Made by a program: the position numbers and the translations under genes. Under the pieces are notes generated by a model. It saw nothing but the letters and a program-made list of their open reading frames with translations, was not told the DNA's origin and ran no database searches. 41,141 bases of DNA from a virus (lineage: Duplodnaviria > Heunggongvirae > Uroviricota > Caudoviricetes), in the IMG/VR virus record IMGVR_UViG_2718218171_000006, positions 1 through 41,141 of that record, one strand, 5' to 3'. Below are positions 1,301 to 41,141 of this stretch, one piece after another. Positions within the stretch are counted from its first letter, which is position 1, and the number at the start of each line of letters is the position of its first letter.

Positions 1301-3672
1301 TAGATTGACTCCCCCACCTGAGCATCAGTCAATTCCTTGTGCCATATTCTGAAATTCCTGACATGACCAAATAAATGACGTAACCCGGCAGTAGTCTGGC
1401 CTCCAATACGGATAATTGCGGTGTTCTGAATACAGGACCATGTGGTTTTTGTTTCGCTGGATATACGCCCGTTACTTACTGAGCACGTAGACTGATCTGA
1501 CTTTACACGCATCCCCATAACCATTTTTTCAAGCAATGCGTTTTCGTTTACCCGTCTGTTAGCTCCTCCAATATCGCAATAAGGAAATCCGTCGTAATCT
1601 GCTGAAGAACCGAATCCAAGAATAATTGCCGCTCCGGTTTGATGACCGCCGGTGTCAAAAACACGCGGCGCTGCATTTGGCGTTTTATACCAGTTCTTAT
1701 GTACCTCACAAAGAACCGTAAAAGGAAGATTATAAAGATTATTCTTAATGGGAACTGTGACTATATCGCTTGCGCGGGTCGCCGCCGTCGTTCCTGATAT
1801 AATAAAAGATGATACACAAGGCCCATTTTCTACTTGTGGGGTGGCCAGATAAATATAGTCACCAGATACGGTTGCCCCGCCCTGCTTAGGAGAATACTGT
1901 ATCTGAGAACCTATTTTTAACTCCCCATCAATTGCCTGAATTGTTGCCTCTGCAAAAATCCATCCGGTAGCTTCGTCCTTTCTGACTCTCGCTGTAATCC
2001 TTGAGGCAGCACCGCCTGTCATATTAATTTCAAGCGTTTGTGTATCAATATACGCATCACCAAGAAAAGTTGTTGCGCTACCGTCATATTTATCAAACCG
2101 GATACGCAACCTTACCTGCAGTTCTGTTTTAAAACGACATGAGGTTGTCACGTATTTATTATCGCCTGAGACATCAACTGACTTTGTTGCAGCAATTGAT
2201 GCCATATTAATGGCTGAGGTTTGCCCAATCAGAGAATCGTTACAGACAAACTTTCCATAGGTAAAACCAAAACTATCCTTCCCGGTTTCGGGAACATCCA
2301 TATTTGACGATCGCCCCCAACTGGCAGGGCTTTCCGAATTGAGCATGTAGTTCGTTCTTTGCCCCTCAATAAGCAGGCCATCACGTTCAAACCGTGGCTC
2401 GTCAATGGCAGCCTCTGTCAGCACACCAGATTTATTAATATAGGTTGCTTTCGATGCACGTTTAAACTTAACAATCTTGTCGCCAGGCATCGTTATTTCA
2501 TCGTCACCAATAACAATTTTTTTATATGATGGTGAAAAGCCCGTAATCATATCCAGCGAATCGTTAAATGGTATCCACACATCGGGAAGCGGCTGTAAGA
2601 CATATTTATACGGCTCCGCAGCCTGGCTTGCGTACTCTCTGGCTGCATCTTCGCTTGCTTTAGCTGCCGTCTGGCTTGCTGCCGATGCTTTCGCTGAGTT
2701 CGCAGCCGCTGTTTCGCTCACCTTTGCGTTGGTTTCACTGGTTTTTGCTGCTTTTTGACTGTTAGCTGATGCAGTGGCAGAAGAAGCCGCCGCACTTGCA
2801 GAACCAGCTGCGGCACTCTCGCTTTGGGCCGCTGCATCCTGACTGTTTTTCGCCGCAGTTTCGCTGGCTTTGGCATTCGTTTCGCTGGTCTTCGCTGCCG
2901 TCTGGCTGGACTTTGCGTTAGTTTCACTCGTCTTCGCTGCTTTCTGACTGTTAGCCGCAGCAGTTGCTGATCCAGCAGCTGAAGTCGCAGAACCGGCCGC
3001 CGCACTCTCGCTTTCAGCTGCTGCATCCTGACTGCTTTTCGCCGCAGTTTCACTGGCTTTGGCATTCGTTTCGCTGGTTTTCGCTGCCGTCTGGCTGGAC
3101 TTTGCGTTGGTTTCGCTCGTCTTTGCGGCTGTCTCGCTGTTTTTCGCGTTGGTTTCTGATTTTTTGGCTGCTGTCGCGGAGTTTGCCGATGCAGTCTGTG
3201 AGGTCGCTGCCGCCTGTGCACTATTAGCTGCATTCGTTTCTGAGGTTTTCGCCGCGTTCTTCGATGATGCCGCTGCAGTTTCGGATTTCTTTGCCGCCGC
3301 TGCGCTCTGAGAGGCGGCTTCAGCGTTGCGTGCCGCTTCTTCCACCATTTCCTCAAAACGACGCAATGCCTCCGGCATGACATCATCTTCCGTCATGGCA
3401 CCGAGAAAATCATTCAGCGTCCCCGGCTTAGAATCTTCATACACGGTGATGGTCCCGGCATGTGAAGGCGGAAAACCTTCAACCAGCAGGATAACGCTGT
3501 ACTGGCCATACTCAACAGCCATACTGTAACGCCCGGCTTCATCCGGATTTTCTGAGGCCACCGTGTTTACCACAACCGTGGTGCTGTTACGTTTTGCTTT
3601 GAGCTGAATGGTGCAGTTCTGTATCGGTTTTCCTGCACCGTCTTTCAGCACACCTGAAATCTGTACTGCCAT
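1300..3672 (-). CDS. stf: Side tail fibre protein (lambda Stf homologue, divergent C-terminal receptor-binding part)
   Basis: N-terminus MAVQISGVLKDGAGKPIQNCTIQLKAKRNSTTVVVNTV... closely matches lambda Stf; ATG at 3672 preceded by GGAG (the ORF track extends to a GTG at 3678); long A/S/T/K-rich repeat region. Confidence 0.85.
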   Translation of the reverse strand: MAVQISGVLKDGAGKPIQNCTIQLKAKRNSTTVVVNTVASENPDEAGRYSMAVEYGQYSVILLVEGFPPSHAGTITVYEDSKPGTLNDFLGAMTEDDVMPEALRRFEEMVEEAARNAEAASQSAAAAKKSETAAASSKNAAKTSETNAANSAQAAATSQTASANSATAAKKSETNAKNSETAAKTSETNAKSSQTAAKTSETNAKASETAAKSSQDAAAESESAAAGSATSAAGSATAAANSQKAAKTSETNAKSSQTAAKTSETNAKASETAAKNSQDAAAQSESAAAGSASAAASSATASANSQKAAKTSETNAKVSETAAANSAKASAASQTAAKASEDAAREYASQAAEPYKYVLQPLPDVWIPFNDSLDMITGFSPSYKKIVIGDDEITMPGDKIVKFKRASKATYINKSGVLTEAAIDEPRFERDGLLIEGQRTNYMLNSESPASWGRSSNMDVPETGKDSFGFTYGKFVCNDSLIGQTSAINMASIAATKSVDVSGDNKYVTTSCRFKTELQVRLRIRFDKYDGSATTFLGDAYIDTQTLEINMTGGAASRITARVRKDEATGWIFAEATIQAIDGELKIGSQIQYSPKQGGATVSGDYIYLATPQVENGPCVSSFIISGTTAATRASDIVTVPIKNNLYNLPFTVLCEVHKNWYKTPNAAPRVFDTGGHQTGAAIILGFGSSADYDGFPYCDIGGANRRVNENALLEKMVMGMRVKSDQSTCSVSNGRISSETKTTWSCIQNTAIIRIGGQTTAGLRHLFGHVRNFRIWHKELTDAQVGESI
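2770..3200. repeat. Tandem imperfect direct repeats (~189 bp period, 2+ copies) inside stf
   Basis: DNA at ~2770..2958 repeats at ~2959..3147 with a partial third copy; encodes 63-aa units KTSETNAKSSQTAAKTSETNAKASETAAK... Confidence 0.7.
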
Positions 3673-3685
3673 ATTCACTCCACAA

Positions 3686-3711
3686 ATAAAAAAGGCACCA
3701 TTTCTGGTGCC
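3686..3711 (-). terminator. Intrinsic terminator/attenuator between J and stf
   Basis: Hairpin GGCACCA-TTTC-TGGTGCC (3694..3711) followed on the minus strand by TTTTTTAT. Confidence 0.5.
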
Positions 3712-3730
3712 CGAATTTGGGTTTTAAAAT

Positions 3731-6700
3731 TCAGCTAATCGTGATGCCTGCAGTGGCTTTCTTCATCACAACAACCAGCAAATCGCTGATACTTGCTGTG
3801 GGATACCAACCATTTACCCACCATGCTGATACAGAAAACTCCAGTGTCATTACGCCACTGCCTGCTGGCATATCAATAACACCCGTGTAAATCAGAGTAT
3901 TATCCAGAGCCGTTCGGTTATAAATTTCAGCCCCGTTTTTCTTCACTATCAGGCGGCATGACGAATAAGTATCGCTATTCTCCCGCTCATGTCTGGCACC
4001 GCAGAAAGCCACCGCTGGAATAACAATTTGCCGGTCAAACGGCTGATCGTCATAAACCCTGACGGTAATGGTCCCTGATGGCCACCGCTCCGGTGCACGG
4101 GAGTCCCGGGGGAAAGCTTTGCCCACTGTTTTAACGAGATCGCCTTCAATCTGGTTCGCGGACAGTTTTCCCAGAACCCGACAGTTCTCGTTAATCGTGA
4201 CGTTGTTGAGCGTCCCGGAGTTCGCATTCACGCTACCGCTGATATCGGCATTTTTCGCCGTCAGCCGCCCGTCCGGTGTCAGGGAAAATGCCGGAGGATT
4301 ACCGCCGCTGGTAATGGTCGGAGCCGTCAGGCGTTTCAGGAACACGTCGTTCATGAATATCTGATCGCCCTGACCAACAAACATTGGTCTTGTGTTGCCA
4401 TTAGACGGATCAATAAACGCGATACGGTTAGCGGCAACCAGGAACTGGCTCAGTTTGCCTTCCTCCGTATCCTCCATGCTGAGGCCAAGCCCCGCGACAT
4501 AATGCCTGCCGTCTTCGGTCTGCTCAATTTTGACGCCCCACATGGCATTCCATTTATCGTTGGCGTCTTTCCACTCTTTCGAAAACTCCTCCAGTTTGCT
4601 GGCGTTATCCTCCGTCAGCTCGACTTTTTCCAGCAGCTCCTTGCCGAGATGGGATTCAGTTATCTGGCCTTTGAAAAAATCCAGGTAACCTTCCGCATCA
4701 TCGCTCGCCCGACCGACAGCCTCCACGAATGCCGATTTGCCAACGGTGTTCACACTGCGAACGTAAAAATAATAATCATGGCCCGGCCTGATATTGATAC
4801 TGGCAGCTATCCAGTACAGCGCCGTGCCAAGATAGCGGGCTGTGGTTTCAACCTGCCTGATATCCGCAATCCGCTTTTCCGAGAACCAGAACTCAAACTG
4901 TACCGTCGGATCATAAACGGCAAGATGCGGCGTGGCGGTGATCTGAAAATAGCCCGGCGTCAGCTCAATCCGCGACGGCGCTGACGGTGCGGCAATCCGG
5001 AACGATACCGACGCCGGATCGCCCTGCTGTCCCCACGCATTTACCGCCCGGACTGTCAGCCTGTAGTTTCCCAGCGCCAGTTGCGTGAATCGGTATGTGG
5101 TTTCCGTCGTCCGGGCCGTGCTGACCAGCCGCTCACTGCCGTCATCCGCTGCCACGGTCAGGCGAAGCATAAAGCTCACACCCTTCACCACCTTCGGCGT
5201 ATCCCAGCGCGCCAGCACCTGGTATTCCCCGCTGTCTGCGGTGACTTCTGCGGTCAGGTGCTGCACTGCTGGCGGCGTGACACCATTCACCGTGCCGCTC
5301 TGGTCGCCGTCAAAGTGCGCCCCGTTATCCACGATGGCCTCTTTCTCCGGCACATGCTGCACAGCGGTGATGGCATACGTGCCGTCGTCATTCTCACGGA
5401 TACTCACGCAGCGGAACAGGCGCTGGCGCAGCGTCGGCAGCTTCAGCCCCCACACGCTGTACTCGGCAACGCCATCAGGAACCCGGCTCACTTTTATCTT
5501 CACGCCGTCGGTGACGGACTGGACCTCCACGCTGACCGGATTCCCCTGTCCGTCAACCAGGCTTATCAGCGTGGTGCCGGAGGATGGCAGCGTGATTTCA
5601 CGGTCGAGCGTCAGTGTCCGCGTCTGGCTGTTCACCGCCAGCACGCGCCCGCCGGTGCTGATCCCCGCATAGTCATCATCACAGATTTCAATGACATCGC
5701 CCGGTACATGGCGAAGCCCTTCTGCGCCCACGCTGAAGTCCACGGTCTGCGTTTCCAGCAGCTCCGTTTTAATCAGCCACAGCCCGGCGCGGTGTGCCTG
5801 CCCCCGGCTGGTACAGCCAAAGGCATCCATCTTCGTGACGTTACGACCGTAACGGAGAATGGCCTGCGTATCTTCAACAAGCTCTGTCGCCGTCTCCCAG
5901 CCGTTATTCGGATCAATCCAGTTCACCTCAACGGCATTATGGCGGTCCTTCAGGGCGCTGAAGCTGTAACGGAACGGCGCGCCATCATCCGGCATCACCA
6001 CATTACTGCGGTTATAGGTCCACACCTTATCCGACGGTCGGTCCTGCACGAACGTCAGCGTCTGCCCGTTCCATACCGGCATACAGCGCATCGCCGAGCA
6101 GAAATCACTGAGAACATCCCACGCCTTGCGCTGTGTGGTCAGGTAAGCGTTACAGGTGATGCGCGGCTCCGTGCCACCAAAGCCATCCGGCACCGACTGG
6201 TCGCAGTACTGGCCGATGACATACAGCGCCCATTTGTCCACATCCGCTGCACCAAGACGTTTCCCCATGCCGTAACGCGGGTGGGTCAGCATATCCCACA
6301 GACACCAGGCCATGTTGTTGCTGTATGCTGGCTTAAACGTTCCGTCCCAGATACCGCTGTATTGCCGCGTCTGCGGGTTATAGTTCGACGGCACCTGCAG
6401 AATGCGCCCGCGAAGATGATAATTACGGCTCACCTGCTGGCTGCCGAACTGTTCCGAGTCCACCTGCACGCCAACCAGTGCCGTGTTCGGGTAGCACTGT
6501 TTCACATCGATGATTTCAGTGTATGACGACCAGAGCGTTTTGTTCTGCAGCTGGTCTGTGGTGCTGTCCGGTGTCATCCTGCGCATACGGATATTAAACG
6601 GGCGCGGCGGCAGGTTACCCACCACCACCGAGGCCAGATACTGCGAGGTGGTTTTGCCCTTAATGGTGATGTCTTTTTCCGTCACCCAGCCACCGTTACG

Positions 6701-7126
6701 TTGTATCTGAACCAGCAGGCGGACTTCCGACGGATTCCGGTCCCCCTTTGAGGTGGTTTCCACCAGTGCCTGCACACCGAAGGTAAGGCGCAGACGGTCG
6801 ATGTTTGCAGACGTGATAGTGCGGGTGATCGGCGTGTCATATTTCACTTCCGTACCCAGCACCGTCTCGGAGCCGGAGGATTCAAACCCCTCCGGCGGTG
6901 TCTGCTCCTGCTCACCTGCCCGGAACACCACCGTGACACCGGAGATGTTGGTATTACCCTCAGTGTCCAGCACTGGCGTACTGTTCAGCAGCACGCTTTT
7001 TAATCCATCCACCGGACCTTCAATCGGCCCTTCGCTGATGGCATCGATCACACTCAGTAACTGCGTGGATTTCAGGTTGTCCTTTGCTTCGCGCGGGGTA
7101 TGCCCCTTACTGCTTCCTTTGCCCAT
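3731..7126 (-). CDS. J: Tail tip host-specificity protein J
   Basis: 1131 aa; N-terminus [42 protein letters not shown] as in lambda J; fibronectin-like central region. Confidence 0.95.
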
Positions 7127-7186
7127 TCGTCATGCTCCATAAACGACAAAACCGCCCGGAGGCGGTTTCACATAAAACATTTTGCA

Positions 7187-7834
7187 TCAGCGGCCAATCA
7201 CCACAACCTGACCACCGTCCCCTTCATCTGCCGTGCTGATCTCCTGAGAAACCACACGTGACCCCACGCGCATTTCACCATACAGAACAGGCAAAACATT
7301 GCCCTGAGCAACCATGTTATCCAGTGAGGAAAAATAGGTGTTCTGTTTGCCGTTATCTGTACTGGCTGCCGTGGACGTCCTGGCTTTCGGTGCCAGCATC
7401 TGCGCCACACCGCCCAGGATCATACTGGCCCCTGCCGCATACATGCCCGATACAGCCGCGGCACCCAGCCAGCCCACAGGGTTCCACCATGCCACCGCAA
7501 TCAACGCCGCCCCCAGCACCACCTGAAATACACCGCCACTTTTAGCTCCCGCCAGACGCGGCACGATATGGATCACGGCACCATTTGCCAGCGGCTCATT
7601 AAGACGGGCAGATAATTCGGTTTCACCTGCATCACGCCCGGCAATGCGCACCTGATACCAGCCGTCATTCAGTTTCTGACGAAACGCCGGGAGCTGTGTG
7701 GCCAGCGCCCGGATGGCTTCGGCCCCCGTTTTCACACGAAGGTCGATGCGGCGGCCAAATCGTTGCAAATCCCCGTAAAGGCAGATGCGTGCCATGCCCG
7801 GTGACGCCAGAGGGAGTGTGTGCGTCGCTGCCAT
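7187..7834 (-). CDS. I: Tail assembly protein I
   Basis: 215 aa; MAATHTLPLASPGMARICLYGDLQRFGRRIDLRVKTGAEAIRALATQLPAFRQK matches lambda I; overlaps the 3' end of K as in lambda. Confidence 0.9.
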   Translation of the reverse strand: MAATHTLPLASPGMARICLYGDLQRFGRRIDLRVKTGAEAIRALATQLPAFRQKLNDGWYQVRIAGRDAGETELSARLNEPLANGAVIHIVPRLAGAKSGGVFQVVLGAALIAVAWWNPVGWLGAAAVSGMYAAGASMILGGVAQMLAPKARTSTAASTDNGKQNTYFSSLDNMVAQGNVLPVLYGEMRVGSRVVSQEISTADEGDGGQVVVIGR

Positions 7835-31777: not shown

Positions 31778-32606
31778 GGCGATGCCCTCCGCTGATATTC
31801 AGGAGACGGTGAATATGAAAATTAGCCTTATCCGCCAGACGAATACGTTCAGCCTGCAAGTTAAGAAGGGTTTCTACCAGAACCTGATGCGCCTGCGGAT
31901 CCGAAAGAGTTACCTTGCGCAGAGCACGTAGTGCAGTTGTTACATAACTGAGTTTATGTAAGTCTTCATCATTCAGACGAGAGAGGGCTGGGACAGTAGC
32001 CATGATGGCAGCCTCCGTATGCAATGGATAACTTCCACCACCGGAAACGCCAATTTCGCTGGTGGTGAACTGAGCAGGGTTGGCGTAACCGGCGCATACG
32101 GAAACCGGCGCACCTTTCGGTGCCCCCACCCAGCCCACCATAATTTGGGTATAGCTGAGTTGTAGCAACAAAAAAGACGCTAACGCGCCAATTGTCGCCG
32201 TATGCAATTCCAGGACGCCAATCCCGACACCCGCTTTATAAGGTGCCTGAACAGTGTAACGTCCCGGAATGGCAGAATCAATGTGCTGGTGGTCCTTCAC
32301 ACTCAACAAAATCACGCCTGAATTTCCACAAAGGACTAAAGCACTCATGCGGGTAGTCTTTGCGAAGATAGATAACGCGCTGTGTTTCTGGCTCCCAGCG
32401 AATAACATGGACATAAAGCCCTCTTCCGTCACGAAACCAGCGGTTAAGTTCCTGCACAACTCGCCCCCCACAGTCAGGTAAAGTTCTCTGTGGTTACTTA
32501 CAGCAAGGTGATTTGGTAATCTGCATTCATGCCGTAACAACAGGTGTTCAGCGACGCTGACTACCAGCTGTTGCGACAAACGGTTATTTGCCGTTAAACT
32601 GTTCAT
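31770..32606 (-). CDS. Hypothetical protein (between cII-like and O-like genes)
   Basis: 278-aa ORF, 4-nt overlap with the cII-like gene; no motif recognised. Confidence 0.45.
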   Translation of the reverse strand: MNSLTANNRLSQQLVVSVAEHLLLRHECRLPNHLAVSNHRELYLTVGGELCRNLTAGFVTEEGFMSMLFAGSQKHSALSIFAKTTRMSALVLCGNSGVILLSVKDHQHIDSAIPGRYTVQAPYKAGVGIGVLELHTATIGALASFLLLQLSYTQIMVGWVGAPKGAPVSVCAGYANPAQFTTSEIGVSGGGSYPLHTEAAIMATVPALSRLNDEDLHKLSYVTTALRALRKVTLSDPQAHQVLVETLLNLQAERIRLADKANFHIHRLLNISGGHRHA

Positions 32607-37397: not shown

Positions 37398-37768
37398 ATG
37401 TTTTCGAAATGGAAGGGTTTCTTCGCGGGAAATGTGTACCGCGAGATCTGAAAGTGAATGAAACAAATGCTGAGTACCTAGTACGTAAATTCGATGCGCT
37501 TGAAGATAAATGTGCGGCACTGGAAAACAAAATAATACCAGTGTCAGCTGAACTGCCACCAGCAAATGAAAGTGTTCTGTTATTTGATGCTAACGGAGAA
37601 GGCTGGCTAATTGGCTGGCGTTCTCTCTGGTACACCTGGGGACAAAAAGAAACCGGAGAATGGCAGTGGACATTTCAGGTCGGGGACCTTGAAAACGTCA
37701 ATATCACTCACTGGGCAGTAATGCCAAAAGCGCCGGAGGCTGAGCATAATGACCACATTTACCAATAA
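37388..37768 (+). CDS. DUF551-like phage protein
   Basis: 126 aa; C-terminal W-rich segment ending ...NITHWAVMP; GGAG RBS. Confidence 0.5.
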   Translation: MRMNVFEMEGFLRGKCVPRDLKVNETNAEYLVRKFDALEDKCAALENKIIPVSAELPPANESVLLFDANGEGWLIGWRSLWYTWGQKETGEWQWTFQVGDLENVNITHWAVMPKAPEAEHNDHIYQ

Positions 37769-38369
37769 CGAACTGATTAAAGAAATCAAAGAACGAATCA
37801 GCAGCCTAGAGGTTCGAGACGATATTGAGCGCCGTGCTTATGAAATTGCTCTGGCATCGCTGGAAGAGGATCCGGTGGCATGGCTGCATTCAGACAATGG
37901 CTTAGGTATTCCGGCAATAACCAGGAGTAAAAACATTGCTGACAGTTGGTTATCAAAGGGCTGGTATGTTCAGCCGCTATATATAGCCAAACCAGTACCG
38001 GTGGTGCCAGATGCTCGTCCGTCTTTAAATAATGGCATAGTCGGTTTTGATGAAGGCTGGAACGCCCGCCGCACCGCCATGATTCATGGTGCCGAACCTG
38101 TAAGCCAGACTTACAAGTTGAACGAGCTGTCGGGCAACTCTCCGGTAATTCCGGATGGTTGGATAAGCTGTAGTGAGCGAATGCCGAACGATAAACAGTA
38201 TGTTTGGTGTTGGGGTAAGTCTTACGGCTGGACTGAGTGCGATACCTTCGAAGGGTATTACGATTGGTCGAGAAACAAATGGTGGGCAGTTACTGACGAT
38301 GGGGAAGAACCGGCATCGAAAGTAACCCACTGGATACCGCTACCGGAGCCGCCGCAGGAGGTGAAGTAA
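37749..38369 (+). CDS. DUF551-like phage protein
   Basis: 206 aa; C-terminal WISCSERMPNDKQYVWCW...THWIPLPEPP typical of DUF551. Confidence 0.5.
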   Translation: MTTFTNNELIKEIKERISSLEVRDDIERRAYEIALASLEEDPVAWLHSDNGLGIPAITRSKNIADSWLSKGWYVQPLYIAKPVPVVPDARPSLNNGIVGFDEGWNARRTAMIHGAEPVSQTYKLNELSGNSPVIPDGWISCSERMPNDKQYVWCWGKSYGWTECDTFEGYYDWSRNKWWAVTDDGEEPASKVTHWIPLPEPPQEVK

Positions 38370-38563
38370 TGAACAACTTAATGACAACAAAACAAGTTGC
38401 CGAATTCTGTGGCGTTTCAGTATCGACTGTTCTTCGCTGGAACAGCGTAAACAGGAGAACTGGCCAGAAATACAGGCCTGACTTTCCAGATCCTGATATT
38501 AAATCCTGCCCAAATAAATGGGCATCACGCAAGATATACAGGTTTGCTGGAGTTATTGAGTAA
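38369..38563 (+). CDS. AlpA-family HTH regulator / putative excisionase
   Basis: 64 aa; MTTKQVAEFCGVSVSTVLRWN HTH; last gene of the early-left operon, near int. Confidence 0.6.
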   Translation: MNNLMTTKQVAEFCGVSVSTVLRWNSVNRRTGQKYRPDFPDPDIKSCPNKWASRKIYRFAGVIE

Positions 38564-38885
38564 CGTGTATTATCTCAGATGGGAGCTGACACATCTATGG
38601 CACAGAGCCAAACCTAATCTGACAGCTTGCGCTATGCTGTGAGTTCAACGGGTCGATGCAACGCTATCCTTGAACAACGGGGAACAGGTCAGTCAGCTGG
38701 TGCGCCCGGCGGCGATTCTTGATGTATGCGCTGCAAGATACTGTCACTTTAGGCAATCTGCAAAACATATCACGACCGACTTTTCACAATAAGTGCGTAC
38801 TATTGTGAATTGAATTCTGGGAGTATCGCCTAGTTATATAACGTTAACTGATTGTTTTTTCTAGCGTAGAATGAGGGATTTATCG

Positions 38886-39074
38886 ATGAAAGAAGAACTG
38901 ATTGAACTATACAAAGACTCCTTACTTTTAGGAAAATATATTGAGCTGGAACATATTGCTAATGACATGTTACCAGGCCTATTTCCTGGAAAGGAACTAG
39001 AAGAACTTTCTGACAAGGAGTTAATTGCATTAACTAAAGCCGTAATTACAGGTATGACCTCGTGGCTGTGCTAA
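38886..39074 (+). CDS. Hypothetical small protein in an AT-rich segment
   Basis: 62 aa from ATG 38886 with GAGGGA RBS; no family recognised. Confidence 0.3.
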   Translation: MKEELIELYKDSLLLGKYIELEHIANDMLPGLFPGKELEELSDKELIALTKAVITGMTSWLC

Positions 39075-39178
39075 TACTGATTAAAACTGGCGGCATATGC
39101 CGCCATAATACAACTAACTCGAACAGCCTGCCGTAGGCGTTATCTTCAATGGTCAGTGGTTATAGCAATACCCTCTCG

Positions 39179-39730
39179 TCATGAATATCGGAGATTTAGT
39201 CGGGAATACAGCCTTTCTATCTCATCGACAACTTTGCTAAACTCTTTGGCTAATTTGGGTGGCAATTCAATATGCCCATGCTGGTTCGCTAGGTCACCAG
39301 TATTTAATATTTCAAAACGTTTTCTAGCAAGATACAACCATCTGATCACATCAGGATCATTTACAAGAGCCTGGCGGATATTGTCTACCTGCTGCCCCCT
39401 ATAAATCCGCGTACTATCAGGTAGAAATAAAATATTTTCCGTACTATAAGGATATGGCGTGATATCCAGCATTTCTCCAGCATCATTCTCCCAAATACAG
39501 TGGAACTCAGCTTCAATATAAACTCCCGGTACCTGCCAGATAGCCCAACCGTAAACAGCTCTTCCGCCATTCTGTTCAATCACCGTTTCAACATTCGAAA
39601 AGCAGTCCATAACTTCCGCTCCCGAGAAAGGTTCATTTTTAATCAATACAGCATGAGCATCAGGAACAACTTTCAGACAAAAATTCAGGGTTTCAGGCGT
39701 ATCTAACTGTGCGGGTATTGGATGGTGCAT
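39179..39730 (-). CDS. Hypothetical protein (integrase-proximal cargo gene)
   Basis: 183-aa ORF between the xis-like gene and int, convergent with the 62-aa ORF; no family recognised. Confidence 0.5.
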   Translation of the reverse strand: MHHPIPAQLDTPETLNFCLKVVPDAHAVLIKNEPFSGAEVMDCFSNVETVIEQNGGRAVYGWAIWQVPGVYIEAEFHCIWENDAGEMLDITPYPYSTENILFLPDSTRIYRGQQVDNIRQALVNDPDVIRWLYLARKRFEILNTGDLANQHGHIELPPKLAKEFSKVVDEIERLYSRLNLRYS

Positions 39731-39917
39731 AGCATTCCTTACATTAGAGCTAAATGGGAGGTTTGTAGTAAAGGACTTGCAGATAATGTCATCGCTGGCG
39801 AAGTTTTGGTTTCATTGACTGCTTATCTGTGTCTGCTCACTTATCAATCAATAGTTTTACTGCAATCTGGCGACACCGTTTGTATAAGAATATCCGTTCC
39901 TAGCTCAGAGCGAACTA

Positions 39918-41141
39918 TCAGTTGGTGTCTGAGTTAGTACAAGTAACGATCGATTCAACTCTCTCCCACCATGCCTGGTAGGCTTTACGCTGTTCTTCTA
40001 GATAATCGCTCTTGTCATAAACTTGCCATACCCCTGGCAGTTTATGACCTAGCATTATTTCTGCAATATGAGGCGCAGTAAGATCAGAAAAGTTTGTTCG
40101 TGCTGTTCGCCTCAAATCATGAAGAGACCAATGAGGGAATTGATACCCCAAACGCCGCCATGCGTACTGCATTAAATTGTAAGGCAGCGACTGCAATGAT
40201 GTCCGACCAACGGGTTCCCTGCTTCCTTCCTTAGTAAAAAGCATATCGGAACCATTGTTCATAGAAATAGCGTACTTTATAAGCTCTTCAACCGGTTCAA
40301 TAATAGGCCGCTTTAGCGGTTCGCCTGTTATCTCCCCAGTCTTATGTCGTTCTGGTGGTACAGTCCATACTTTATTAATGAAATCAAAATCGTCCACCCT
40401 GGCGGTAATTAGCTCTGAACTACGGCAGCCAAAATGCAGCAATAGTTTAATGAAGGCCCGGTATTTAGGAACCATTCGAGAACCATCGATCGCAGCATAA
40501 AGGATTTTAATTTCATCATGTGTCAGAAACCGTTTCTTCTGACCTTTACGGATATCCATATCTTTACCCGTGATATCCGACAGCGGGCGAGTTTCAATGA
40601 GCTTTCTCTTATACGCCCAGACATGGGCCTGCTTTGCGTTAATTAGCAATCGGTCTGCTATTGCTGGAGTCTTAGTGCTAAGAGGCTCCAGGACTTCTAA
40701 CCAATCATGCAATGTAGCTGCATCGTGAGGGATATTCCCGATTTTAGAGAACAGGTGCAGCTCAAACGAGCGGAGTATCTGTTCAGAACCTTTTTTATTT
40801 TTTACACAATATGCTTCATACCAGGCACGGATCACAGACTCTACCGTCATGGCTTCAGTAGCTTTTCGTTTTTCAGCCTGCTTGACTAATCGTGGATTGC
40901 GGTTTGACTCGAGTTCACCACGGAGACGGATAACTTCTTCTCTGGCCTCTTTTAATCCAGTTGCCGGGTAAGTTCCGATATCAAGGCGCTCACCTTTCCC
41001 TGCCCATTGATAACGATATTGGAACACTACGCGACCTTTCGGTGATACTCTGACAGACAGACCATCACGATCGGATTTAACCAAAACCTTATCACGTTCC
41101 TTTCCAACGACTGAACGCAACCACGCATCAGACAGCGCCAT
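39918..41141 (-). CDS. int: Tyrosine recombinase / phage integrase (P4-like, N-terminal arm-binding domain)
   Basis: 407 aa; C-terminal catalytic region with HDLRRTARTN and HxxG...Y motifs; start codon at the window edge. Confidence 0.9.
   Translation of the reverse strand: MALSDAWLRSVVGKERDKVLVKSDRDGLSVRVSPKGRVVFQYRYQWAGKGERLDIGTYPATGLKEAREEVIRLRGELESNRNPRLVKQAEKRKATEAMTVESVIRAWYEAYCVKNKKGSEQILRSFELHLFSKIGNIPHDAATLHDWLEVLEPLSTKTPAIADRLLINAKQAHVWAYKRKLIETRPLSDITGKDMDIRKGQKKRFLTHDEIKILYAAIDGSRMVPKYRAFIKLLLHFGCRSSELITARVDDFDFINKVWTVPPERHKTGEITGEPLKRPIIEPVEELIKYAISMNNGSDMLFTKEGSREPVGRTSLQSLPYNLMQYAWRRLGYQFPHWSLHDLRRTARTNFSDLTAPHIAEIMLGHKLPGVWQVYDKSDYLEEQRKAYQAWWERVESIVTCTNSDTN

Follow-up and report, generated by a model that had tools for sequence, protein, structure and literature searches.

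The hotspots of P2 and P4 are prophage defence hotspots (Rousset et al., 2022; PMC9122126), and BstA (PMC8585504) and HepS of Gifsy-1 (PMC13043305) are single-gene prophage defences. Rugutis, a lactococcal antiphage system made up of one protein of 359 amino acids, carries a SEC-C motif (PMC11381338). Single-protein defences such as these show that genes of this kind can be real immunity factors. Here we describe the interval between the excisionase gene xis and the integrase gene int (positions 38,564–39,917) in a 41,141-nucleotide (nt) stretch of Caudoviricetes DNA (IMG/VR record IMGVR_UViG_2718218171_000006), which we call the window. The interval contains two convergent open reading frames (ORFs), ORF62 on the plus strand and ORF183 on the minus strand, named for the lengths of their products in amino acids. 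An earlier note, made from the letters of the sequence, had proposed that this interval is a cargo locus outside the conserved lambdoid backbone. We find that it is a variable slot that holds two unrelated, independently mobile genes of low guanine-cytosine (GC) content. Our tentative reading of the locus as a whole, possible but short of probable, is that ORF183 encodes an enzyme that functions in conflict and that ORF62 is a separate moron.

We used the xis-to-int span as a query against phage records and 5,426 complete E. coli genomes. In 57 phage records, among them Stx1a- and Stx2c-converting phages, 2H10, and PhiR63_1, both flanks matched at 95–97% but the interior did not, and the flanks were also shared with hundreds of E. 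coli chromosomes. The full-length interior was recovered from only three of the 5,426 genomes, in prophages that are near-identical to one another. Over this region, the window is 100% identical to the prophage of E. coli TUM1886. Alignment with related phages placed the left edge of the cargo at ~38,625, where similarity decays, and the right edge at ~39,905, just inside or just past the int stop codon, where similarity resumes. Positions 38,626 to ~39,905 form the variable interior of a cargo slot in a lambdoid E. coli prophage, in agreement with the view that this DNA is not part of the backbone. The left conserved flank is xis, the final gene of the rightward early operon, which is ~97% identical in related phages; the first ~62 nt that follow it are kept whatever cargo comes next. 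The right conserved flank is int, at the end of the prophage, which adjoins yjjG in E. coli TUM1886. Profile matches (Table 1) bear out the assignment of the two bracketing genes as an AlpA/xis-like gene and an integrase.

What the slot carries differs between prophages. In AR434-type prophages, it holds a 566-amino acid AIPR protein, AbiU (PADLOC E = 2.6e-111). Elsewhere, by annotation, a restriction endonuclease is present, or an HNH endonuclease accompanied by hypothetical proteins, and further occupants are orphan proteins of 239, 377, 121, and 517 amino acids without a Pfam or PADLOC match. The int-xis comparison across related prophages that the earlier note had proposed therefore revealed a variable hotspot, consistent with its view of integrase-adjacent positions as sites of cargo and defence genes. 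Here and in several sister phages, the int-proximal cargo gene lies on the int strand. GC content is 37% in ORF62 and 42% in ORF183, compared to 51% in the window. The slot has been remodelled by recombination in its conserved flanks and by insertion sequence (IS) traffic. We also considered that the interval could be a conserved core component of this phage family, with a role such as recombination directionality. Since the interval is absent from most phages with the same int and xis, it cannot be required for recombination, and we rejected a directionality factor or core int-xis module because nearly all genomes with this int and xis lack it.

Both ORFs are present at the positions that the earlier note had given, and the NCBI Prokaryotic Genome Annotation Pipeline (PGAP) calls both as coding sequences (CDSs) in the TUM1886 prophage, where they are labelled hypothetical proteins. 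As reported in that note, neither protein is recognizable. Searches of Pfam, NCBIfam, and PADLOC (PADLOC-DB v2.0.0) yielded no match for ORF183, which matches only PHROG 37148, a family listed with unknown function (E = 2.8e-26). For ORF62 there was no match in Pfam or NCBIfam, and the only PADLOC match, to PDC-M43B, was at chance level (E = 0.058).

ORF62 encodes an acidic protein with an isoelectric point (pI) of 4.5. Its homologues fall into only eight clusters (90% identity), all enterobacterial, with 74–97% identity. Synonymous codon changes outnumber non-synonymous changes (23 versus 13 and 21 versus 10) with a third-position bias, a pattern that indicates a real gene. The conserved start codon is the ATG at 38,886; an alternative ATG at 38,871, which would yield 67 amino acids, is not kept in the homologues. 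In Citrobacter, a relative follows ogr where a P2-like prophage ends, and in E. coli another resides in an islet between kdgR and yobH, with no ORF183 relative at either site. DNA homology with these copies extends from ~70 nt upstream of ORF62 to its stop codon. ORF62 is an independent micro-gene, and we take it to be a moron separate from ORF183. A promoter-like sequence, TTAACT-17-TAGAAT, lies upstream at 38,844–38,872; such sites occur in this region at the count expected by chance, as judged from shuffled sequences. In the kdgR-yobH islet (~5001–7187 of that locus), the ORF62 homologue is 84% identical and lies ~500 nt upstream of a co-oriented gene for an orphan protein of 459–495 amino acids, which has no Pfam or PADLOC match. 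This chromosomal islet may be another accessory module.

ORF183, whose product has a pI of 5.0, is preceded by a good ribosome-binding site, AAGGA, 6 nt before its ATG. Using a word-index search, we obtained 104 homologous clusters (90% identity), with identities down to 30%. In an exhaustive profile search among 50%-identity representatives, 3,177 reached E ≤ 1e-3 and 824 reached E ≤ 1e-30; the family numbers 3,177 or more such clusters. Its distribution is patchy, with members in alpha-, beta-, and gamma-Proteobacteria, Acidobacteria, Verrucomicrobia, Clostridia, Fusobacteria, Bacteroidota, and metagenome-assembled genomes of Nanoarchaeota, and a search pattern for ORF183 gave 66 matches in 185,579 species genomes. 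Family members were present on 63 plasmids, compared to three of 50,697 phage records. Among the few cases in phage genomes, Synechococcus phage Sc-Yong805-1 (positions 3845–4483) and Nostoc phage Nsp-JY21 encode hypothetical proteins of ~212 amino acids that match only the conserved core of the protein, residues 43–96, with 41% identity.

Part of the family carries an additional motif. A C-terminal SEC-C motif (PF02810) is present in 81 of 236 aligned members and absent from ORF183 itself, and in a Pfam scan of 66 ORF183 relatives SEC-C was the only domain detected. Some distant relatives are annotated as “SEC-C domain-containing protein”, a label that derives from the C-terminal motif alone and implies no function. 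One member of 403 amino acids (P0249) contains two matched stretches, so that the ORF183 domain has apparently been duplicated in tandem or fused. This form has no Pfam domain, and the other longer relatives likewise contained no further informative domains. When PDB sequences were searched, neither ORF183 nor its family profile produced anything beyond chance matches in the helical tail. A literature search on the ORF183 accessions, the PHROG identifier, and transglutaminase-like or SEC-C defence proteins retrieved no description of the family.

The structure prediction that the earlier note had suggested gave a confident fold. An AlphaFold2 model of ORF183, built from the family alignment, had a predicted local distance difference test (pLDDT) score of 93.6. 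In this model, an N-terminal alpha/beta domain (residues ~1–125) contains helices at 12–21 and 43–54 and strands at 28–32, 57–67, 71–81, 87–89, 99–104, and 118–121, and is followed by a C-terminal helical hairpin (residues 126–181). Across 236 family sequences, Gly56, Gly61, and Phe102 are invariant. Cys43 is conserved in 232 of these sequences, His77 in 235, and Asp89 in 222 (the others have Asn or Cys), and Glu73, Glu75, and Asp105 are each found in 96–97%. By predicted secondary structure, Cys43 opens helix 43–54, His77 is within strand 71–81, and Asp89 is within strand 87–89.

This arrangement resembles that of transglutaminase-like and papain-like thiol enzymes, in which Cys (at a helix N terminus), His, and Asp (both in strands) occur in the same order and in the positions predicted for ORF183. 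The ORF183 motif C-F ... G-x-A-V-Y-G-W ... F-H-x-I-W-E ... D-I-T-P is also similar to the transglutaminase-like C-R-D-F ... I-P-A-R-Y-x-x-G-Y ... F-H-A-x-F-E ... F-D-A-T. Enzymes of this kind include PF01841 (Transglut_core), the PDB entries 9crn (TglA), 8jx4 (PeiW), and 3isr, and the proteins LapG, SseI, NAT, and staphopain. Unlike members of these families, ORF183 ends in a helical hairpin and contains the additional conserved residues Glu73, Glu75, and Asp105, and it has no significant sequence or profile match to them. No match to a Pfam hidden Markov model (HMM) for Transglut_core was detected in ORF183 or in 66 relatives. A Foldseek search of the PDB with the full-length model returned nothing at E ≤ 0.001, and searches with the whole model either gave matches dominated by the helical tail or found none. 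When the ORF183 family was aligned to the PF01841 core with hhalign, His77 fell on the catalytic His, with a probability of 0.2% and E = 0.34; the core alignment, which consisted of PDB hits and 16 fragments from a homology search, was too shallow for a fair test. Since neither hhalign nor the structure searches were significant, our working hypothesis is that of a divergent Cys-His-Asp thiol enzyme, and we make no claim of family membership. On this hypothesis, ORF183 would be a stand-alone, putative Cys43-His77-Asp89 enzyme, with Glu73, Glu75, and Asp105 along the same face as the triad. The helical hairpin, which a SecA-type SEC-C zinc knuckle extends in one-third of the relatives, would serve in oligomerization or target binding.

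To which genes ORF183 homologues are linked varies widely. Clustering of 1,056 neighbouring ORFs from 62 loci identified no conserved partner gene: the most frequent neighbour cluster was present at six of 58 ORF183 loci, largely from related Rhizobiales. As no neighbour recurs, ORF183 would be expected to work alone or with unlinked partners. Most relatives reside in accessory contexts, and none of those examined is accompanied by ORF62. These contexts include a P2-like Pseudomonas prophage, where the relative adjoins gpD; an integrative conjugative element (ICE) of Dickeya; and a Mesorhizobium locus, where it is beside DarT/NADAR. On Xanthomonas conjugative plasmids, a single gene separates a relative from Gabija (GajA, E = 2e-292; GajB, E = 9e-188). 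A further relative occupies an ordinary chromosomal locus between genes for TetR and DAPG-hydrolase. Using Pfam and PADLOC, we scanned the two nearest genes to the left and right of family members, 146 in all. These included Kiwa KwaA and KwaB, a type I restriction-modification specificity subunit, mad5, DrmD, AIPR, and MqsA, as well as UmuD and UmuC, integrases, resolvases, and many unrelated genes. The neighbourhood is suggestive of a role in conflict.

Two other neighbourhoods were seen. In Yersinia enterocolitica (1789–5552 of the locus), a protein of 967–978 amino acids with an N-terminal SIR2 domain and PADLOC matches to ThsA-, Dsr1-, and LmuA-like proteins (E down to 2e-23) is encoded 275 base pairs (bp) upstream of a co-oriented ORF183 homologue with 76% identity, which is followed by a gene for an orphan protein of 452–514 amino acids. 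At Klebsiella prophage ends (4817–6552 of the locus), a block consisting of a Hin-type DNA invertase, a 184-amino acid orphan, and an ORF183 homologue lies near an integrase. This three-gene block is conserved beside differing tail-fibre or depolymerase genes. The 184-amino acid neighbour was not detectable as an ORF183 paralogue, and we rejected that relationship.

ORF183 shares its direction of transcription with int and runs against the early operon. A terminator scan of the spacer between int and ORF183 found none, so that read-through from int into ORF183 is possible. By eye, the spacer contains a weak candidate promoter, TTTACT-18-TCTAAT. ORF183 would be expressed in a lysogen, driven by its own weak promoter or carried on transcripts that read through from int.

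Downstream of ORF183, the palindrome described in the earlier note is present and proved longer than stated. The 16-bp sequence GGCGGCATATGCCGCC at 39,089–39,104 is the centre of a perfect 18-bp palindrome, TGGCGGCATATGCCGCCA, that is unique in the window. Perfect 16-bp palindromes occurred in 43% of shuffled windows, a second one lies at 1,086–1,101, and 0.16 palindromes of 18 bp are expected by chance in such shuffles. At these frequencies, the palindrome alone is only mildly unusual; what makes it meaningful is where it lies and how stable its hairpin is. As RNA, it folds into a 7-bp stem with six GC pairs and a 4-nt loop (-14.1 kcal/mol, z = -4.2). A U-tract, GUUUUAAUCA, follows the hairpin on the minus strand only, and a terminator scan matched this strand 74 nt past the ORF183 stop codon. 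The hairpin belongs to ORF183, because the ORF62 homology block stops at the ORF62 stop codon, before the hairpin is reached. ORF183 thus ends at an intrinsic terminator of the ordinary sort. Like other intrinsic terminators between convergent genes, the hairpin lies between two stop codons and has a GC-rich stem, with a U-tract on the strand of ORF183. In contrast to such terminators, its U-tract is short (four U) and missing on the plus strand, which makes bidirectional termination doubtful; the hairpin could act as a weak barrier to plus-strand ORF62 transcripts. The terminator should keep transcription of int and ORF183 from running antisense into ORF62 and xis.

The ~300 bp that follow xis were described in the earlier note as non-coding DNA. 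No conserved ORF is present in this region, as that description implies, but it is not uniform: it consists of the backbone anchor next to xis, an IS30-family relic, and the conserved upstream region of ORF62 (~38,815–38,885). A search of the interval against Rfam gave no family match, even at E ≤ 1. The anchor contains a short hairpin with the arms AGATGTG and CACATCT; in sister phages, it includes a second inverted repeat, GGCACAGAG...CTCTGTGCC, that is degraded in the window. These repeats could represent an early-operon terminator or a recombination anchor; a consensus RNA fold of the anchor was weak, with no convincing structure. The relic matches ~500 E. coli genomes at ~90%. In strain ST131, the same sequence is immediately upstream of a partial or truncated transposase gene (a pseudogene) that matches the NCBIfam model transpos_IS30 (E = 1.9e-16). 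No second IS end and no transposase were found in the window, and a complete IS30-family element was rejected on these grounds. A single IS30-family end without a transposase in the window indicates a relic, the scar of an earlier turnover of the slot. Coordinates of all features are collected in Table 1.

Table 1. Features of the xis-int interval and its flanks, with positions in the window
Feature	Position	Strand	Evidence
xis (excisionase, 64 amino acids)	38369..38563	+	PHROG phrog_1553, E 1.3e-35; HTH_17, E 6e-5
Backbone anchor directly 3' of xis	38564..38625	+	>600 E. coli records match at ~95%
IS30-family left-end relic	38637..38685	+	48-nt match, ~500 E. coli genomes
ORF62 mini-module (~70 nt upstream plus CDS)	38815..39077	+	DNA homology to copies elsewhere
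ORF62 CDS (62 amino acids)	38886..39074	+	ORF list; PGAP call
18-bp perfect palindrome/terminator hairpin	39088..39105	-	Terminator scan; hairpin energy
ORF183 CDS (183 amino acids)	39179..39730	-	ORF list; PGAP call
int-ORF183 spacer (187 nt)	39731..39917	-	Sequence; between int stop codon and ORF183 start codon
int (tyrosine integrase, 407 amino acids)	39918..41141	-	Pfam Phage_integrase, Arm-DNA-bind_3, Phage_int_M

How might these genes function? In the reading that we tentatively favour, ORF183 would be a single-protein conflict factor that is expressed in the lysogen and most likely protects it. The likeliest version is an anti-phage effector of the abortive-infection type that would cleave or modify a protein target on infection. 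A bolder version, which we regard as unlikely, is that ORF183 founds a new, widespread family of single-gene abortive-infection-type systems, defined by a very divergent Cys-His-Asp thiol enzyme with a helical hairpin and often SEC-C, with ORF62 as a second, independent conflict micro-protein. In that case, ORF183 would sense infection and act on a host or phage protein that, to judge from the SEC-C fusions, is possibly linked to translation or secretion. Several observations weigh against a defensive ORF183. Its fold link is weak, with neither a Foldseek match in the PDB nor a Transglut_core HMM match; the proposed triad comes from sequence order and predicted secondary structure; and the Glu/Glu/His/Asp set could instead form a metal site. 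No convincing ORF183 promoter was detected, as a scan found no site upstream and promoter-like sites were no commoner than in shuffled sequences. The association with defence genes is anecdotal: the neighbours are for the most part a mixed set with numerous housekeeping genes. ORF183 also matches no PADLOC v2 model, described or candidate. That so large a family was evidently missed by earlier defence-island screens also argues against strong defence enrichment. For both ORF62 and ORF183, a defence function is read from context.

Some of the same observations favour a general accessory enzyme. ORF183 might be a thiol- or metal-dependent hydrolase or modifier of a cellular metabolite or protein that hitch-hikes on mobile DNA, its presence in the slot being incidental. 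A very large and taxonomically broad family, neighbours that are mostly unrelated (oxidoreductases, hydrolases, and regulators), copies in ordinary chromosomal contexts such as the TetR/DAPG-hydrolase locus, and the lack of a PADLOC match all fit this explanation. However, the spread of the family is patchy (66 of 185,579 species genomes), copies occur in prophage ends, an ICE, and plasmids and, in unrelated taxa, beside Gabija, SIR2, DarT/NADAR, and Kiwa, and the slot carries AbiU in other prophages. We consider a general enzyme doubtful, if deserving of serious attention. More doubtful again is that one or both proteins serve in counter-defence or host takeover, with ORF62 acting as an acidic inhibitor and ORF183 cleaving or modifying a defence protein. 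Like many inhibitor proteins, ORF62 is both tiny and acidic; moreover, both genes travel on mobile elements, and relatives of ORF183 are found beside defence systems, as are some plasmid anti-defence genes. Yet ORF183 relatives are nearly absent from phages (3 of 50,697 records) and common in chromosomes and large plasmids, and the other cargo of the slot consists of defence genes. Since ORF183 points against the early operon, it is also not part of the early lytic transcript.

The adjacency of the two genes, convergent on a shared hairpin and encoding a small acidic protein and a putative enzyme, could suggest a functional pair, such as a toxin-antitoxin or effector-immunity system. Convergent genes do not form an operon, the ORF62 homology block ends before the hairpin, and only the three near-identical prophages of E. 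coli were seen to carry both genes. With each gene found without the other in every other context that we examined, a two-gene system is largely refuted, and we regard a pair as very improbable. We give still less credence to the idea that the interval is decaying junk or an int/xis regulatory region in which the ORFs are not functional genes. An IS scar and ~190 nt without features are what such DNA might contain, but purifying selection has kept both ORFs in more than one genus, ORF183 folds with high confidence, and the interval is absent from most phages with the same int and xis. Junk DNA and int-xis regulation were rejected on the basis of this conservation and the absence of the interval from sister phages.

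We also made observations elsewhere in the window. On the minus strand at 32,058–32,246, Rfam models detected a C4 antisense RNA (80.7 bits) and an adjoining isrK Hfq-binding small RNA (58.9 bits), both above the gathering score. The C4/isrK pair is an immunity/antirepressor-type RNA module of the prophage. On the plus strand, 37,749–38,369 contains one intact ORF of 206 amino acids, with a full-length match to phrog_60 and DUF551 at residues 137–203. In the identical stretch of TUM1886 (5186–5806 of the locus), PGAP gives two partial pseudogenes for this ORF, a call that is probably an annotation artefact.

Where sister phages keep proven defence genes in a prophage slot, the search for new genes of immunity or counter-immunity is likely to be rewarding. 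The ORF183 family, with at least 3,000 clusters, no Pfam model, a confident fold without a clear PDB match, catalytic-looking conserved residues, and repeated proximity to defence genes, is worth following up. If ORF183 does protect the lysogen, a compact single-gene system, possibly a new branch of thiol enzymes, would be added to the defence repertoire. Even without such a role, the locus neatly illustrates cargo exchange in lambdoid phages, which here involves recombination in the flanks and IS traffic, cargo co-oriented with int, and a terminator that shields xis.

Among described defences, BstA and HepS are best taken as conceptual parallels to ORF183. Rugutis, like members of the ORF183 family, is a stand-alone protein encoded on a mobile element, with a SEC-C zinc knuckle and a fold that is otherwise unmatched. 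It differs from the ORF183 relatives in its length and in that the motif is N-terminal; as the two were compared by description, the likeness is a lead only. Unlike described cargo defences, ORF62 and ORF183 match no described system. In other respects the locus is like known prophage cargo, with genes of low GC content, a terminator for ORF183, an orientation of ORF183 against the lytic operon, and a defence gene, AbiU, in the slot of sister prophages. The locus is a fresh example of a well-known kind of feature, the prophage moron or defence hotspot. As in the P2 and P4 hotspots (PMC9122126), conserved flanks enclose an interchangeable interior of single-gene modules; unlike those hotspots, this slot belongs to a lambdoid phage and is flanked by xis and int.

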